DNA of 64,000 nt from Dehalococcoidia bacterium (GCA_046497565.1 JAWOFK010000057.1:2096-66095), one strand, 5' to 3'; counted from the stretch's first letter, positions 57,934 to 64,000 are shown. The notes: generated from the letters alone by a model not told the origin. Translations and numbers: made by a program.

Positions 57934-58383
57934 ATGAAAGCATGCGAAGGACGAATTGGCCGGGTGTTCGTGATACGGCTGGAGGATGGCGATGTTGTGC
58001 CCCGATGTATCGAGCGTTTTGCCGAAGAGAAGGGAGTCTCTGTGGGACATGCTATCCTGGTGGGTGGCATTGGGGGTGGCGACGTCGTTGTCGGGCCGCG
58101 GCGTTCGGAAGAAAGGCCGCCGGAGCCCGTGCTCCTGCCCATTGAAGGGGCCCACGAGGTGGTGGGGGTAGGCGTGCTCGCCCCTGATGAACATGGCAAA
58201 CCGGTCTTGCACATACATGCAGCCCTGGGCCGGGCGGGGCGGACCATGACCGGCTGCCTGCGGCAGGGCGTGACCACCTGGCTTGTCGGAGAAGTTATCC
58301 TCTACGAAATCCTCGGTGCAGACGTCGCGCGTATCCAGGACAAGCAGAGCGGCTTCGCGCTCCTGGAGCCTGGGGTACGATAA
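57934..58383 (+). CDS. PPC (DUF296) domain protein
   Basis: The pattern GRVFVIRLEDGDVVPRCIERFAEEKGV...AHEVVGVGVL...GKPVLHIHAALG fits the PPC domain. Confidence 0.7.
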   Translation: MKACEGRIGRVFVIRLEDGDVVPRCIERFAEEKGVSVGHAILVGGIGGGDVVVGPRRSEERPPEPVLLPIEGAHEVVGVGVLAPDEHGKPVLHIHAALGRAGRTMTGCLRQGVTTWLVGEVILYEILGADVARIQDKQSGFALLEPGVR

Positions 58384-58388
58384 CAGAT

Positions 58389-58426
58389 GTCATTGCGAGC
58401 GCCACCTTGTCGGGGCGTGGCAATCC
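58389..58426. repeat. REP-like family 1 unit (forward); left boundary of the accessory island
   Basis: GTCATTGCGAGCGCCACCTTGTCGGGGCGTGGCAATCC. The reverse complement of 63011-63049 is GTCGTTGCGAGTCCCGACTTGTCGGGGCGTGGCAATCTC, the same subtype in inverted orientation. Confidence 0.8.
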
Positions 58427-58529
58427 CGGTGGGGGTATGTGGGGCTATCCTGGAGACACAGCACCTCGTTTATGCTACGCTCAGTTAGTATTGCGTCCCT
58501 GTAATTTGTGGAATTCACAGCGATTTTCG

Positions 58530-58714: not shown

Positions 58715-59485
58715 ATGGACAAGGAAAGGTTAACGTGGAAAGCTGTTGTCAGGGAAGCCCTATTGGAGTTAGGTGGACAGGGTCATTTATCGGAGATTAA
58801 CAAAATCGTGGAAGGTCATCCCAAAACCAAGACCAATCCAACTTGGCGGGATACTATTAGGCGAGTTGTAAGGCAATATAAGATTTTTCAACCAGTGCCA
58901 CCTGAGAGGAGTGGTGTTTACAAGGTTGTGGAAGAGGTCTCCGTAAGACCTGAGGCCCAAGTTTTTACTGAAGAACCAGAAATTGATCACGGAATCGCTC
59001 AAGCAATGCTGGCCACGCTGGGTAAAATTTACGGATATGAGACTTATGTGCCTCCGCATGACCAAACTATCAGAGAATTTCAAGGCAAATCCCTGGGAGA
59101 TTTTGTGACTGTATCCGACTGTACCGATATTTTCAGAGGCCCTAACTTGGCAAAAATCCGGGAAATAGACACTCTATGGTTTGATGAAGATGATTATGGA
59201 TTGTTTCCAGTCTACGCTTTCGAGGTGGAGGAGACAACAAGGGTAAAATCTGGATTGGACAGACTGCTGAAAATACCAAGTAGATTCCCTACTCGGTTTT
59301 TCATAATTGGACCAACCGTAAAGGAAAAGATTTTATTCGACCAATTCATCACTCAGACGCCCTTTCGAACATTTAGAAGTAGATTTCTATTTAGACTCTA
59401 CGAAGAGCTAGAAGCATTATATAACTCTGCTTTGGTTCACAATGACAGGCGGGAACAATTTGGAATCCTGGAAAGAGGAGGATGA
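58715..59485 (+). CDS. winged-helix + restriction-endonuclease-like (PD-(D/E)xK-fold) protein
   Basis: The N-terminal Mrr_N-like wHTH reads HLSEINKIVEGH...WRDTIRRVVRQY...GVYKVVE. The C-terminal core is HGIAQAMLATLGKIYGYETYVP...IDTLWFDEDD..PVYAFEVEETTRVKSGLDRLL (D152, E170-x-E172). There is no obvious SD. Confidence 0.6.
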   Translation: MDKERLTWKAVVREALLELGGQGHLSEINKIVEGHPKTKTNPTWRDTIRRVVRQYKIFQPVPPERSGVYKVVEEVSVRPEAQVFTEEPEIDHGIAQAMLATLGKIYGYETYVPPHDQTIREFQGKSLGDFVTVSDCTDIFRGPNLAKIREIDTLWFDEDDYGLFPVYAFEVEETTRVKSGLDRLLKIPSRFPTRFFIIGPTVKEKILFDQFITQTPFRTFRSRFLFRLYEELEALYNSALVHNDRREQFGILERGG

Positions 59486-59487
59486 AC

Positions 59488-59826
59488 ATGGACACCACAA
59501 AAAGACATTTTATACAGAGAGCAAATGAACTAGGAGTCTTGCTTGTTAGGGAAAGAAACTCCAAAGAAGATCTCTCTGGTTGGGGAGCGCTCGAATTTAT
59601 TCTGAGCAATGGAGAGATTTTTGTGGTATCTGCTCAACAGTTCGGGCAAGGAAATCACGAGGATGGATTATGGGTAGATATGAACAAACTCAATGCCGTT
59701 ACACTTAGCAGGATCAAGCAGAAAGCGTCAAGGCCCAGGAGAAAACAAAAGGAAGATACTATATCGGCTTGGCTGAAGCACCAAGCAGTGTCAGACCCAG
59801 AGGATATTCTGGGGCATACTACCTGA
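59488..59826 (+). CDS. hypothetical small protein with basic C-terminal tail, coupled to the upstream nuclease-like gene
   Basis: The track ATG at 59482 overlaps the upstream stop (ATGA). GAGGAGG at 59475-59481 is better spaced (6 nt) for the ATG at 59488. The tail reads KQKASRPRRKQKED. No family was recognised. Confidence 0.5.
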   Translation: MDTTKRHFIQRANELGVLLVRERNSKEDLSGWGALEFILSNGEIFVVSAQQFGQGNHEDGLWVDMNKLNAVTLSRIKQKASRPRRKQKEDTISAWLKHQAVSDPEDILGHTT

Positions 59827-59941: not shown

Positions 59942-60463
59942 TTATTTACGTTCGTTCCGTCTCTGTTCCAAGACTTGTCTTAGGTATTCCTCGCCTCTTG
60001 CGAGTGTACCGCTGAAATGTTGACTCACCACCACTTCGAATGCTGGGCAGACAGAGGTCTCAATATCCTTGATGCGGTATGCGCGCAATCGGCTAAGTGG
60101 AAGAGAGCCTGGTCTGAGATTACCCAGCGGTATATTGGCAAATACCCAATCTTCAAACATCTGTATCCGAACTGCAGCTATCACAGGCAGATAGCCATCC
60201 TTGGTGCGATCTTTTAGGGCCTCTATATTCTCTCTAGATATAGGAATGCTCTCACCATCCGTTGTCTTGACTTCCAAGGCATACTTCTTCCCCATCATAT
60301 TTGCAGCGTCGATGTCAGCGCCTTGCACTTCACGTTCAACTATGTCAAAGAAACCAGCTTCATAGAGGGCAAGAGCCAGTAGCTTCTGTGCAATCTTGCC
60401 GAAGATCCCTGGGCCGAATTTGGCACGAATCTGTTTTAGACGTTGGTATGTGTCCACCTTCAT
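59942..60463 (-). CDS. small PD-(D/E)xK nuclease-like protein, Hjc-resolvase-like core
   Basis: The ATG lies 3 nt after the upstream stop. Candidate catalytic residues are E35...GAD50ID52...YALE64VK66TT. The following ISRENIEAL...GYLPVIAAVRI parallels archaeal Hjc as I remember it. Confidence 0.6.
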   Translation of the reverse strand: MKVDTYQRLKQIRAKFGPGIFGKIAQKLLALALYEAGFFDIVEREVQGADIDAANMMGKKYALEVKTTDGESIPISRENIEALKDRTKDGYLPVIAAVRIQMFEDWVFANIPLGNLRPGSLPLSRLRAYRIKDIETSVCPAFEVVVSQHFSGTLARGEEYLRQVLEQRRNERK

Positions 60464-60466
60464 GGG

Positions 60467-62638
60467 CTACGCATTCCTAGTAATCTGTGGTCCGTTCTTT
60501 TCCGTCCAGTCAAGAAAATCATACACACCTTTGTTTTTGGTAATGTTAGTCATCAGGAGGTTTTTGAATCCTACGTATGGTGTGGAAATGATGAGTTGCC
60601 TCCGCTCAGCTATGTCCTCAAGCACAGTTACGAACTGTTGCTCCATTTCGGGTCCAAGACTCTGGGAGGGATCATCCAGCATCAGAAATGCGAAGGGCTG
60701 TGTCTCCTCTGCTGCCTCTGCTAAGCCAAAAAAGAGGGAAAGAGCTAGGCAATTAAGGTCTCCCTGGCTTAGAATAGGTGTTGGATCCAATCCATCCTTG
60801 CTCTTTATGTCATAGAAATTGAGTCCAGTTCGAGAATCCTCGGTTACTTCCATAACAAGCCCCCTTATAGTTGGATGGTTTGCTATGCGGCAGAAATATT
60901 TATCTAGGCTCGTTCCAGCAGCACCTATCTTAGCTTCAGCTTCCTCTCTTGAAGCAGTAGCTAAGGCACCTTTGATGGCCTGCACATCCTCCATAAACTG
61001 AGATGCTTTGTCTATCAACTTATCCAATTCTTTGTATTCCTTTGTGCTCCATATGCGCTCAACAATTTCTCTCTTCCGTTCCAGACTCAGGATCTCGTCT
61101 ATTGTTCTCAATTTCGCCAATTGGTCAAAGATGGCAATTCTCTTTTCACCCTGCTTTTCTATGGCCTTTTGTTGCGACTCTAACTCTGAAGCTATGTCCT
61201 GAAGCTGTTTGTTTAGAAGGGCGAGGGGGTCCTCATGCTTACCAATTTCACGTTGCAAAGCAACAGTGACTTGAGTTCTACATTCCTCTAAGCTAGAGCG
61301 AGCCACCGCCAACGCCTTTTCTAGTTGCTCAAGCTGGTCCTTAAAAGACTTAAGTTGCTTGAGTTCAACTTGCCGTTCCTTCCTCTCGGCCTCTAGGGCT
61401 CTTACCTCTACCTCTATCTTGTCTTCCCATTCACTCTCTAGTTGATTTAGCAACTGTGGTGCCTTGGCGCCACATAACGGACAGTATTTTTTTTCGGTAT
61501 CTGAGACCACTTCTCTAAAATATTGTACGGCCTCTCTGACCAGACTTGCCCTTGCATCTGATTTGTGTATGTCTTCCTCGACCCTTGTAATCTCTTCTTG
61601 TTGTGCCTCAAGAGCTTTAACTAGAGCAGTCTCGTCACCGTGCTGTTGAACGAATTTATCCCTTTCTGTTTGGGCTTCAGCCTCAGCTTTTTTGACATCT
61701 TCATATCTTCCTACAAGAGTGGCTAGTCCTCGTTGTTTTCTCTCTAGGGTTGTCTGCTTAACCATGTCTGGCGAGTGGAGCCAGACGGCGTCAATCTTGT
61801 CTTTTACGTCGTCTCGAAACTGCGCAACCTCCCCAAAACTCTGGGGCATGGTTATTGGCAGATCGCTTATCCCTAACTCCTGGGCAAGAGATATAACTGC
61901 CTCGCCAATGCCCTTTGCACGATGTAAAGCTTCCTTCTCGGTTATGTATTCTTCTCCCATACCCTCTACAATAGCCTTTTCCTTCTTCTCCCGTGCTTCT
62001 TTGTCGTATATGCGGATACTTTGCTCTGCACGTTGTCTGAAACTATCGAACTCATTCTTCATAGTCTTGTATAGATTCCCAATCTTTGCGTCGGTCATTC
62101 CTCGTACAAGTTCTCTATATTCAGAGAGGCCCAGAAGCCTATCAATGGCATCATTTCGATCTCGCGGCTCTTGTGTCAAGATAGCCCGAATAGCCTCTTG
62201 ATGCTGGTAGACTGTAGTCATGAAGTTTTGAAATGATGAATGGAATAAAGTGTAAATTTGGCGCTCTGCGTCATCACCGTGTAGCTCAACCCCGTCTGGC
62301 AACTCGACCATTATTCTCTCTGAAGCGCGTCTGCCAGTCCCGCTTAGCTCACGTGTCACAACATAATTACCCTCCGGGCCCTTGAATTCGACTTCAACGA
62401 GTACGCCTTCTCCTGATACATAACGATTGGAGATTTCCCACCCGATACGCTCACGGATGCCTGTCTTTTTGCCAACACAGTTCTCTCCAAAGAGGCACCA
62501 TTCTACAGCATTGAGGGTGCTACTTTTACCGCGGTGATTCTCACCGCAGAGGAGCACGACAGGCCGGTCAAAATTCAACTCCTGTGCATCAGCGAATCCT
62601 CGGAAATCGCGAATCTTAAGTCTCATAAGATGAAGCAT
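60467..62638 (-). CDS. SMC/Rad50/SbcC-like ABC ATPase with central CxxC zinc hook (mini-Rad50)
   Basis: Walker A is CGENHRGKSS (nt 62522-62545). A Q-loop-like YQHQ is present. Long heptad-rich arms flank CPLCG (res 386-390, nt 61472-61483). The signature-like motif is LSQGD (623-627) and Walker B is FLMLDDP (651-657). A GGGGGG SD precedes the ATG at 62638. Confidence 0.8.
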   Translation of the reverse strand: MLHLMRLKIRDFRGFADAQELNFDRPVVLLCGENHRGKSSTLNAVEWCLFGENCVGKKTGIRERIGWEISNRYVSGEGVLVEVEFKGPEGNYVVTRELSGTGRRASERIMVELPDGVELHGDDAERQIYTLFHSSFQNFMTTVYQHQEAIRAILTQEPRDRNDAIDRLLGLSEYRELVRGMTDAKIGNLYKTMKNEFDSFRQRAEQSIRIYDKEAREKKEKAIVEGMGEEYITEKEALHRAKGIGEAVISLAQELGISDLPITMPQSFGEVAQFRDDVKDKIDAVWLHSPDMVKQTTLERKQRGLATLVGRYEDVKKAEAEAQTERDKFVQQHGDETALVKALEAQQEEITRVEEDIHKSDARASLVREAVQYFREVVSDTEKKYCPLCGAKAPQLLNQLESEWEDKIEVEVRALEAERKERQVELKQLKSFKDQLEQLEKALAVARSSLEECRTQVTVALQREIGKHEDPLALLNKQLQDIASELESQQKAIEKQGEKRIAIFDQLAKLRTIDEILSLERKREIVERIWSTKEYKELDKLIDKASQFMEDVQAIKGALATASREEAEAKIGAAGTSLDKYFCRIANHPTIRGLVMEVTEDSRTGLNFYDIKSKDGLDPTPILSQGDLNCLALSLFFGLAEAAEETQPFAFLMLDDPSQSLGPEMEQQFVTVLEDIAERRQLIISTPYVGFKNLLMTNITKNKGVYDFLDWTEKNGPQITRNA

Positions 62639-62652
62639 ATTCTCTACCCCCC

Positions 62653-62853
62653 CTACAGCATGTCATTGAGTTTGGCAAGCAAGACATCAAAAGTCTCTCG
62701 AAATTCATCCATTTCAACTGCCAATTCATTTGCGACACCTTCTGCTCCTTCCTTTTCGAAAGAATCCGAAATAGTGTGCCACAAAGCCTTTCTTTCGTCT
62801 GCTCGCTGTTCCATCATAGCAATTTTGTCTAGTACCTTTTCATTGTGACCCAT
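62653..62853 (-). CDS. 66-aa acidic helical protein, first gene of the island operon
   Basis: A strong GAGGAGG SD lies 5 nt upstream. It sits 14 nt before the ATPase gene. The sequence is Glu/Asp/Ala/Leu-rich and no family was recognised. Confidence 0.55.
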   Translation of the reverse strand: MGHNEKVLDKIAMMEQRADERKALWHTISDSFEKEGAEGVANELAVEMDEFRETFDVLLAKLNDML

Positions 62854-62886
62854 GCTGACCTCCTCGTATCTCCTGAGTTAAGAGTA

Positions 62887-62915: not shown

Positions 62916-63010
62916 GGAATAACAGCGTTATGGGGCGTATTATCTTCAGCGGGGACATAATGCCTGACTTATAGTAGGCCTGATTAGTATGGTGTTCCTG
63001 GATTCCCGCT

Positions 63011-63049
63011 GAGATTGCCACGCCCCGACAAGTCGGGACTCGCAACGAC
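63011..63049. repeat. REP-like family 1 unit (inverse); right boundary of the accessory island
   Basis: GAGATTGCCACGCCCCGACAAGTCGGGACTCGCAACGAC is the inverted partner of 58389-58426. Confidence 0.8.
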
Positions 63050-63161
63050 AACAACGGGGAAATCGTGATGACGAATGGACGTTTGGGGGAGGGGGAATTG
63101 CGCTTGCGATGACGAGGGGAAGACAATGCAGTTGTCAGGCTTTCTTCACCCTCACCTTAAT

Positions 63162-63182
63162 CCTCTCCCGTCAAGGGAGAGG
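63162..63182. repeat. GC-rich hairpin (family 2 style)
   Basis: CCTCTCCC-gtcaa-GGGAGAGG forms an 8-bp stem. Confidence 0.6.
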
Positions 63183-63211
63183 GAATGCCACTTTTAGGAA
63201 AGTTTGTTTCT

Positions 63212-63220
63212 TGCTATAAT
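63212..63220 (+). promoter_or_regulatory. extended -10 TGcTATAAT 13 nt upstream of the activase ATG
   Basis: The sequence is ttcTTGCTATAATtgctgaccgcgcaATG. There is no SD in the spacer. Confidence 0.4.
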
Positions 63221-63233
63221 TGCTGACCGCGCA

Positions 63234-64000
63234 ATGGGTTACTATCTGGGCGTAGATATCGGCTCTGTCAATGCCAAGCTGGCACTCATAGAGGAGAATG
63301 GCAGGGTCGTTCAATTTGATACCGAGAAGGCCAGCTCCGGCCCCAGGGCCGCAGTCAGTTCCCTCATCGCCAGGCTGGGCGAGAGATTCAATCTCAAGGA
63401 TATTTTGGCTGCCGGTGTATCCGGTTCCGGCAGGGCCTTCATCCCGCAAGAGATGGGCTGGACGCAATACAGCAGCTCGCTGTCCATTATCTCCGGGCTG
63501 CTCCACCACCATCCCGACGTTAAAACCGTTATACAAATCGGCGGCCAGAGCACCCTGGTGATAGAGCTGGAAGACGGCTTGAAGAAGCCGTGGAAGGTGG
63601 AATCCAATCCCCTTTGCGCCGCGGGTACAGGAAGGTTCCTGGAGCAGCAGGCCTACAGGCTCGGCATCAGCATGGAGGACTTCGCCAGCCTGGCGCTGCA
63701 ATGCCAGGGCACTCCACCCAGGATAGCCGCCCGCTGTAGCGTATTTGCCAAGACCGACCTCATCCACCTCCAGCAGAAGGGGGTCCAGCTGGACGCCATG
63801 CTTTATGCACTGTGCGAAAGCGTGGCCCGTATGGTGGCGGCCCTGAAGAAAGGGCCCTTCCAGGAGCCGGTCTATTTTGTGGGCGGCGTTGCCGCCAACC
63901 CCGCCGTGGCCAAGTCCCTGAACGACATGATTTCCGACAGGAATGGTCATCCCGTTGAAGTAATCATCCCCGAGCACTACCTGCACATGGAATCCCTGGG
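63234..64000 (+). CDS. BcrAD/BadFG-family ATPase (2-hydroxyacyl-CoA dehydratase activase-like); 3' end beyond window
   Basis: Absent from the track because it is edge-truncated. It reads MGYYLGVDIGSVNAKLALIEENG (ASKHA phosphate-1), then IQIGGQS, CAAGTGRFLEQQA and VYFVGGVAANPAV. The frame is open to nt 64000. Confidence 0.8.
   Translation, partial: MGYYLGVDIGSVNAKLALIEENGRVVQFDTEKASSGPRAAVSSLIARLGERFNLKDILAAGVSGSGRAFIPQEMGWTQYSSSLSIISGLLHHHPDVKTVIQIGGQSTLVIELEDGLKKPWKVESNPLCAAGTGRFLEQQAYRLGISMEDFASLALQCQGTPPRIAARCSVFAKTDLIHLQQKGVQLDAMLYALCESVARMVAALKKGPFQEPVYFVGGVAANPAVAKSLNDMISDRNGHPVEVIIPEHYLHMESL

Follow-up and report, generated by a model that had tools for sequence, protein, structure and literature searches.

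A three-gene operon pairing a Rad50-like zinc-hook ATPase with an Hjc-fold nuclease in a Dehalococcoidia bacterium: a possible branch of Lamassu-like immunity

The operon and its distribution

The operon considered here lies at positions 59942–62853 of a 64,000-nucleotide stretch of DNA (the window) from a Dehalococcoidia bacterium (GCA_046497565.1 JAWOFK010000057.1:2096-66095). Its three open reading frames (ORFs), all on the minus strand, encode proteins of 66, 723 and 173 amino acids (aa), in that order: a small helical protein, an ABC ATPase with a zinc hook, and a predicted nuclease with the fold of the resolvase Hjc. The three genes, referred to below as the triad, are as follows.

62653–62853, minus strand: gene for the 66-aa helical protein (ORF and Shine–Dalgarno sequence seen; a homologous ORF lies 5′ of the ATPase gene elsewhere)
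60467–62638, minus strand: gene for the 723-aa zinc-hook ABC ATPase (matches to LmuB and Pfam models, in PDB profile searches and in Foldseek)
59942–60463, minus strand: gene for the 173-aa predicted Hjc-fold PD-(D/E)xK nuclease (AlphaFold2 model; Foldseek, profile and hhalign matches)

The genes are tightly packed, as the first-pass annotation of the window had described: the ORFs were confirmed with gaps of 14 nt (66-aa gene/ATPase) and 3 nt (ATPase/nuclease), and with both Shine–Dalgarno sequences, GAGGAGG at 62865–62859, seven bases ahead of the first ATG, and GGGGGG inside the 14-nt gap. The ATPase and nuclease genes (62638–60463, minus strand) stand in one reading frame with TAG and one codon between them (..RNA, stop, P-MKVD..); the shared frame is probably coincidental, because at other loci the same genes overlap out of frame.

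One genome per species was scanned (185,579 species genomes), and metagenomic contigs were added to give 43 distinct loci. The 38 loci among the species genomes all belong to metagenome-assembled genomes (MAGs) and are spread over more than 12 bacterial and archaeal phyla, with hosts in Chloroflexota, Planctomycetota, Clostridia, Aerophobetes, Thermodesulfobacteriota, Nitrospirota, Actinomycetes, Dadabacteria, Caldisericia, Cloacimonetes and several archaeal groups. Every intact locus, that of the window included, keeps the order small protein–ATPase–nuclease, which recurs over 43 loci and an ATPase identity of 28–90%. Directly 5′ of the ATPase gene, a small ORF with a 61–72-aa core is present in 38/38 evaluable loci, and it was found also in six loci outside the profile seed (L019, L039, L044–L047; E = 3e-12 to 7e-25). 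The nuclease gene lies directly 3′ of the ATPase gene in 36 of the 40 evaluable loci, with gaps of 3–25 nt or overlaps that suggest co-translation. Whether the three genes keep company in other genomes, a question raised by the first-pass annotation, is answered by these counts.

Not every locus keeps the full triad. The small protein and ATPase occur without a nuclease at two Planctomycetota loci (L027 and L039) and in one metagenomic context (P0082), and two copies are degraded: at L040 the ATPase gene is frameshifted and the nuclease displaced by about 1.7 kb, and at L041 only fragments are left. The small protein and ATPase are the most stable core of the system, given a small ORF at 38/38 loci against a nuclease at 36/40 and the loci that lack the nuclease altogether.

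A distant relative of the ATPase was observed on the megaplasmid NZ_CP084470.1 of Natrinema salinisoli (L043; 4822–6959, 7827–9674). This protein of 654 aa (22.6% identity; family-profile score 87 bits) likewise carries one CPLC, located midway along the chain, and a Walker B that reads LLDD. The start of its gene is overlapped by an ORF for 58 aa that shows no detectable homology to the 66-aa family; an Hjc-like gene is absent from the locus, and about 0.9 kb downstream stands a PLD-like gene. Such an arrangement suggests that mini-Rad50 modules may form a wider class whose partners can be exchanged.

The zinc-hook ATPase

The ATPase was aligned with its homologues (43 sequences, identity down to 35%, all about 720 aa), and the motifs of a split ABC ATPase with a central hook are conserved as follows.

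62519–62545, minus strand: Walker A, residues 32–40 (GENHRGKSS); G32, N34, K38, S39 and S40 invariant in 43
62195–62209, minus strand: Q-loop region, Y144-Q-H-Q-E148; invariant in 43
61469–61483, minus strand: zinc-hook motif CPLCG, residues 386–390; C386, P387 and C389 invariant in 43
60758–60772, minus strand: ABC signature LSQGD, residues 623–627; L623 and G626 invariant, S624, Q625 and D627 each in 42/43
60668–60688, minus strand: Walker B FLMLDDP, residues 651–657; D655, D656 and P657 invariant in 43, giving hhhhDD instead of hhhhDE

The H-loop histidine is absent throughout the family, position 687 being Met in 26/43 and Pro in 17/43. From the Walker B DD and this missing histidine it may be inferred that ATP turnover is slow and switch-like.

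In the AlphaFold2 (AF2) model, whose predicted local distance difference test score (pLDDT) is 87.6, residues 186–376 and 396–586 form antiparallel coiled-coil arms of about 190 residues each, and CPLC falls in the loop 377–395 at their apex, between helices 336–376 and 396–461. Each ATPase has a single CPxC, invariant in the alignment. When the hook alone was searched against the PDB as a family profile, the top two matches were the Pyrococcus furiosus (Pfu) Rad50 hook structures 1l8d and 6zff, at a borderline E = 0.014–0.03, with CPlCG of the ATPase in register with CPVCG of both structures; as a single sequence the hook region had no match in the PDB, so that the Rad50 hook is reached only by the family profile. 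The conserved motifs, the modelled arms and the 1l8d/6zff matches together bear out the earlier proposal that the protein has ABC heads split in two, a pair of coiled-coil arms and a zinc hook of the Rad50 type, and the invariance of C386 and C389 answers the question, raised in the first-pass annotation, whether the CxxC is conserved.

After the Walker A helix lies a family-specific stretch, residues 48–67 (62497–62440), with the sequence EWCLFG.EC.GKKTGIRERIDWEI. Within it C54, G56, E63, R64 and W67 are invariant and C48 nearly so, and its pLDDT is 72–80; it could be a loop that binds DNA or a partner protein.

The nuclease

The 173-aa protein is predicted to be an Hjc-fold PD-(D/E)xK nuclease with an intact D...ExK site. 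Two elements carry the assignment.

60266–60316, minus strand: predicted catalytic core, from D50 (60314–60316) to E64-V-K66 (60266–60274); invariance in the family alignment and alignment with Hjc
59948–60070, minus strand: C-terminal helical hairpin, residues 132–172; helices 132–156 and 158–172 in the AF2 model

Conservation was read from two alignments, A3 (61 sequences) and the broader A2. D50, E64, V65 and K66 are invariant in A3, K66 is conserved in at least 90% of A2, and D52 is nearly invariant; the first-pass annotation had named these acidic residues and the lysine together with E35, which is not conserved. Other invariant residues are Q26, R44, T67, W106, E135 and F142, and E43 is also conserved. 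The AF2 model (pLDDT 94.3) has an alpha-beta core followed by the hairpin 132–172, mostly at pLDDT >90. Foldseek gave Holliday-junction resolvases (Hjc, Hje, then RecU) in all of the top 33 PDB matches (E from 3e-5; template modelling score normalised to the target, 0.65–0.71), as the likeness to Hjc noted in the first-pass annotation had led one to expect, and the family profile matched Pfu Hjc (1gef) with E = 0.015. In the hhalign alignment, which starts at residue 32, D50, E64 and K66 stand opposite D33, E46 and K48 of Pfu Hjc; its ungapped extension would set the invariant Q26 at the position of Pfu Hjc E9, a catalytic glutamate of the N-terminal helix that completes the metal site.

The protein thus has the fold of Hjc, Hje and RecU with the catalytic D and ExK aligned, and differs from them in several respects. 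It scores below the Hjc cutoffs of both Pfam (PF01870, 13.7 vs 21.1 bits) and NCBIfam (NF040854, 19.4 vs 70), and weak Hjc matches were obtained for 18 of 35 family members, the best with E = 0.0012. It may carry Q26 in the place of E9, it has an additional conserved C-terminal hairpin of about 45 residues, and it is encoded beside a Rad50-like ATPase rather than as a lone repair gene. The hairpin is present in every full-length member, with E135, F142, H149, Y160 and L161 conserved, and it may be used for docking or oligomerisation. HMMER, run exhaustively on 1.84 billion representatives, returned 198 relatives, nearly all of them stand-alone proteins of 165–190 aa and none fused within a longer protein. 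The nuclease is presumed to be the effector of the system. Homology to LmuA was considered and rejected, as there was no match in PADLOC, PHROGs or the plasmids searched.

The small protein

In its sequence pattern the 66-aa protein opens with a short helix, continues with one whose last residues are A[FY]E, turns at GG and closes with a long helix, and its family keeps length, position and an LW..I..A[FY]E.GG core. It had no match in Pfam, PADLOC, NCBIfam or PHROGs, and a PDB search with the family profile matched nothing but de novo designed helical bundles, which is an effect of composition. Two candidate homologies were rejected: LmuC, because 28 members of the family gave no significant PADLOC match, and the C-terminus of SbcD, because hhalign against the E. 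coli protein gave a probability of 0.2%. We infer from its constant position that it is an obligate partner of the ATPase, in the place taken by LmuC in Lamassu.

Relation to Lamassu, Mre11-Rad50 and SbcCD

The 723-aa protein matches AAA_23, SMC_N and AAA_15 in Pfam. In PADLOC-DB v2.0.0, a library that gives no curated threshold, its best match is LmuB (PDLC03859; E = 2.9e-52, 176.7 bits), which aligns residues 3–711 with model positions 4–608 of 611; AriA, PbeC, DndD, GajA and PtuA follow far behind and are confined to the N-terminal P-loop region. Five distant members of the ATPase family score 124–175 bits on PDLC03859, always their top PADLOC match, and E. coli SbcC (1048 aa), taken as a control, reaches 83–84 bits on two LmuB models (E = 5.6e-24). 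Judged by these scores, the family is nearer to the PDLC03859 model than SbcC is, yet remains a remote relative.

Lamassu systems are reported to descend from SbcCD and to include 'long' LmuB proteins with the Walker B consensus hhhhDD and always one CxxC (PMC12663957). The Lamassu literature gives hhhhDE for Rad50/SbcC and describes short (about 600 aa) and long (about 800 aa) LmuB proteins, LmuB hooks of the CPxCG type, a small gene, lmuC, immediately ahead of lmuB, PD-(D/E)xK nucleases as an established class of effector, and a clade without an effector. The 723-aa protein has both long-LmuB traits, hhhhDD and a single CxxC. It can tentatively be placed within the radiation that runs from Rad50/SbcC to LmuB, closest to long LmuB, and may fall on either side of the boundary; a solved LmuB as the nearest relative was rejected, none appearing at E ≤ 10 in the PDB profile search.

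Set against Lamassu and the related ABC-3C and DdmABC systems, the triad shares an ATPase whose best PADLOC match is LmuB over its full length, the two long-LmuB traits, a small gene directly 5′ of the ATPase gene like lmuC before lmuB, a nuclease that has a restriction-endonuclease fold and a C-terminal module (similar to the C-terminal domain of LmuA in logic only), and a sporadic distribution near other defence genes. It differs in its effector, a stand-alone protein of 173 aa, and its small protein of 66 aa, neither of which matches the LmuA or LmuC models; in an ATPase whose 723 aa lie between short and long LmuB and whose sequence is nearer to Rad50 than to the solved short LmuBs; and in its adjacency to AddAB in some lineages. 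The first-pass annotation had held that the operon matches no named system of SMC-like ATPase and nuclease. That claim is not supported, given the full-length LmuB match (E = 2.9e-52), and hook, small gene and PD-(D/E)xK nuclease are all known in Lamassu; what stands of it is that partners and gene order differ from those of the named family.

With Mre11-Rad50 and SbcCD the triad shares a zinc-hook ABC ATPase, best solved-structure matches to Rad50 heads and hook, an ATPase and a nuclease in one operon, and occasional adjacency to addAB. It differs in lacking a calcineurin-type phosphoesterase, its Hjc-fold nuclease being encoded 3′ rather than 5′ of the ATPase; in arms of about 190 residues, shorter than those of E. 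coli SbcC or of the 1163-aa SbcC-like protein in the P0082 context; in its Walker B DD and missing H-loop histidine; and in a separate 66-aa partner and a rare, patchy distribution. The earlier statement that the operon includes no Mre11/SbcD gene agrees with the search for Metallophos genes, which found none in the operon of the window; the one in the P0082 context comes with an SbcC-like gene of its own.

Genomic neighbourhoods

Neighbours of the triad differ between loci, and defence-type genes sit among housekeeping genes. The defence-type genes listed include SIR2-HerA, the S subunit of a type I restriction–modification system, type III CRISPR Csm3/RAMP, MADS genes, PIN, AbiEii-type ATPases, an OLD/TOPRIM ATPase and a HepT-MNT pair. 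AddA/AddB-like genes adjoin the triad in three lineages and three arrangements, which points to repair: at L001 (1–4719) and L047 (1777–7694) the triad lies directly 3′ of AddB/AddA-like genes on the same strand, the order of addA and addB differing between the two, and at L037 (2060–5044) an AddB gene stands beside it in divergent orientation. In Bacillus subtilis, the corresponding position after addBA is taken by sbcDC, in the operon addB-addA-sbcD-sbcC. In the P0082 context, the small protein and ATPase genes are followed by a Metallophos (SbcD-like) gene and the 1163-aa SbcC-like gene.

A block of genes recurs beside the triad in two unrelated contigs (L046, 638–5560, and the P0082 context). 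It comprises two small ORFs, an ImmA/IrrE-like Peptidase_M78, a protein of about 420 aa without a family, and a HerA/DUF87 ATPase of about 615–635 aa; the block may be an uncharacterised HerA-based system.

Proposed function and alternatives

The reading favoured here, with moderate confidence, is that the triad encodes a compact DNA-structure-sensing nuclease complex, derived from Rad50/SbcC and Lamassu-like (ABC-3C), which would most likely serve in anti-phage or anti-plasmid immunity; as such it most likely represents a branch of Lamassu not yet catalogued, rather than a wholly new machine. The Lamassu-like character is argued from the LmuB scores, the combination of hhhhDD with one CPxC, the small gene before the ATPase gene, which stands as lmuC does before lmuB and as the SbcD C-terminus does before sbcC, and the PD-(D/E)xK nuclease with its additional C-terminal module. 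Defence is supported by the patchy distribution (38/185,579), by defence-type neighbours, and by the situation of the window copy, which lies in a low-GC island by a restriction-endonuclease-like gene (see below); the effector-less or decayed copies at L027, L039, L040 and L041 are what would be expected of fast-turnover defence genes.

A working mechanism can be drawn by analogy from the structures of Lamassu and SbcCD, which supply its proposed interactions, trigger and output. Two ATPase protomers would dimerise through the zinc hook and through ATP-dependent engagement of their heads, and the ATPase, presumed to be the DNA sensor, would act through its deviant active site as a slow conformational switch and not as a motor. 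The 66-aa protein would be an obligate structural partner, a counterpart of LmuC or of the C-terminal part of SbcD that binds SbcC. The nuclease would dock by its C-terminal hairpin and be kept inactive, probably as a sequestered monomer, since Hjc-type enzymes work only as dimers. Binding of the heads to DNA ends, hairpins or branched replication intermediates would then release or re-position the nuclease, which could dimerise and cut DNA, so that the invader is destroyed or the infection aborted.

Several observations weigh against a Lamassu-like defence system. The LmuB score amounts to about 0.3 bit per position, that of a remote relative and of no member of any seed family, and the best PDB matches of the family profile are Thermotoga and archaeal Rad50 heads (1.7e-18, or about 1e-18), with the solved (short-type) LmuB absent even at E ≤ 10. 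Foldseek on the ATPase model likewise ranked Rad50 first (8e-19), with LmuB 9hqx from Salmonella and SbcC 7yzp from E. coli both at about 1e-10. Neither partner protein is recognised: the nuclease has no PADLOC match at E ≤ 1 and none to any LmuA model, and the 28 members of the 66-aa family gave only scattered PADLOC matches with E > 0.005 and no LmuC model. Gene order is small protein–ATPase–nuclease instead of lmuA-lmuC-lmuB. The defence-type neighbours are a raw listing, the AddAB adjacency and the P0082 context point toward repair, and the GC content of the triad mostly tracks that of its host across loci. No cultured host of the triad is known, and no copy was found on the viral contigs or plasmids searched. 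Sequestration and release, finally, is borrowed from Cap4-type Lamassu. Carriage by mobile elements was rejected, since there was no relative on a viral contig and no close one on a plasmid.

The strongest alternative, which must be regarded as tentative, is that the triad is an analogue of SbcCD or Mre11-Rad50 that serves repair of the cell's own DNA: the mini-Rad50 would sense ends, hairpins and stalled or reversed forks, the Hjc-like nuclease would be stably bound where Mre11/SbcD otherwise sits and cleave the structure for resection by AddAB, and the 66-aa protein would correspond to the Rad50-binding helix-loop-helix of Mre11. This would suit the Rad50 heads and hook as best solved relatives and the top Foldseek rank of Rad50, the position of the triad 3′ of AddB/AddA-like genes at L001 and L047 and beside a divergent AddB at L037, the P0082 pair that precedes SbcD-like and SbcC-like genes, the host-like GC content at most loci, and the nature of Hjc and RecU as structure-specific repair nucleases. 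Core repair genes, however, would not be expected to be as rare and scattered as the triad (38 of 185,579 species genomes, in two domains), nor to suffer the loss of effector and the pseudogenisation seen here; the active site, with Walker B DD and no H-loop histidine, departs from the hhhhDE of Rad50/SbcC; the ATPase has about twice the score of a genuine SbcC on the LmuB model; and most neighbourhoods are non-repair, several with defence genes, while the window copy sits in its low-GC island beside the restriction-endonuclease-like gene.

A further reading, equally tentative, joins elements of repair and immunity: beside Mre11-Rad50/SbcCD and Lamassu proper, the triad may represent an independent third line of Rad50-type machines with a zinc hook, one in which a resolvase-type nuclease and a 66-aa adaptor replace Mre11. 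Such a lineage could be a living intermediate on the proposed path from SbcCD to Lamassu, at the boundary of repair and immunity, and might cleave hairpins, cruciforms and branched intermediates of host or invader DNA and pass the ends to AddAB.

It is improbable that the 66-aa protein and the ATPase are the functional unit by themselves, as a DNA-binding or DNA-organising pair (for instance in maintenance or exclusion of mobile elements) to which the nuclease is a dispensable addition and in which effectors are swappable. The pair does occur without a nuclease at L027, L039 and in the P0082 context, the Natrinema relative combines a 58-aa ORF and a 654-aa CPLC/LLDD ATPase with a PLD-like gene and no Hjc-like gene, and a Lamassu clade without an effector has been reported; the nuclease is nonetheless adjacent in 36/40 loci with spacing of the co-translation type, its family is essentially of one size and appears dedicated, and its catalytic residues are invariant. 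Chance adjacency of three ORFs, or a small ORF that is no real gene, can be set aside almost entirely, for although the 66-aa protein is without a database family and its PDB matches are compositional, the same order and tight spacing recur in 43 loci at 28–90% ATPase identity, and the small ORF keeps its length, position and LW..I..A[FY]E.GG core.

Novelty and implications

Zinc hook, small gene before the ATPase and PD-(D/E)xK effector are already known in Lamassu; what appears to be undescribed is the combination in one triad of an Hjc-fold effector, a 66-aa subunit, this gene order and an intermediate ATPase. No paper was found that ties Hjc to Lamassu or to SMC-like defence; the ABC-3C classification (Krishnan et al., 2020) lay outside this search, and an earlier listing there is possible.

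Were the Lamassu-like reading true, the triad would be a new branch whose effector, small subunit and gene order escaped PADLOC-DB v2.0.0, in which only the ATPase was matched. Because the branch would occur mostly in uncultured lineages, including DPANN-type archaea, the defence inventories of these organisms would be under-counted. With about 960 residues of unique sequence, it would also rank among the smallest zinc-hook SMC-like complexes, which would make it attractive for structural work on hook ATPases that gate nucleases. The ATPase mixes Rad50-like sequence with the long-LmuB DD and in some genomes sits at the place of sbcDC after addAB, and the triad therefore bears on the recently proposed evolution of Lamassu from SbcCD and on the conversion of a repair machine to immunity. 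If instead the repair reading were true, the triad would couple Rad50 to DNA processing by a route other than Mre11.

Surroundings of the operon in the window

The operon lies in a region of low GC content (45.4% over 58.5–63.15 kb, vs 52.4% in the remaining window), which agrees with the low-GC island of the first-pass annotation; its further remark that there is no housekeeping context did not hold, for the flanking genes are ordinary metabolic ones, a PCC-domain gene at 57934–58383 and a BadF/BcrA-type activase from about 63215 on the plus strand. The latter is the true gene over a 271-aa ORF that had been listed at 63171–63986 (minus strand) and is spurious, an artefact of high GC content; it encodes a BadF/BadG/BcrA/BcrD-type ATPase, starts near 63215 and runs past the end of the window. 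No tRNA that might indicate tRNA-linked integration was found in the window, and scans for promoters and terminators gave counts at background.

Two further genes lie within the island and converge on the triad.

58715–59485, plus strand: gene for a 256-aa protein with a weak PADLOC match to a type II restriction endonuclease (E = 1.5e-4)
59482–59826, plus strand: gene for a 114-aa protein with no match in library scans

The two genes overlap, and no methyltransferase gene was seen adjacent to them. They were rejected as members of the triad, with no co-occurrence in 41 loci; never found beside the triad at other loci, they appear to form a separate module, possibly with a defensive role.

An inverted repeat of 46 nt (83% complementary; 58388–58433 and 63005–63050) flanks the low-GC island almost exactly, and its core, TGTCGTTGCGAG..CCCGACTTGTCGGGGCGTGGCAATC, holds a small hairpin of its own. 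A third, more divergent copy at about 2735–2775 of the window suggests a dispersed element similar to repetitive extragenic palindromes (REP) or miniature inverted-repeat transposable elements (MITE), which may mark a hotspot of recombination or insertion.

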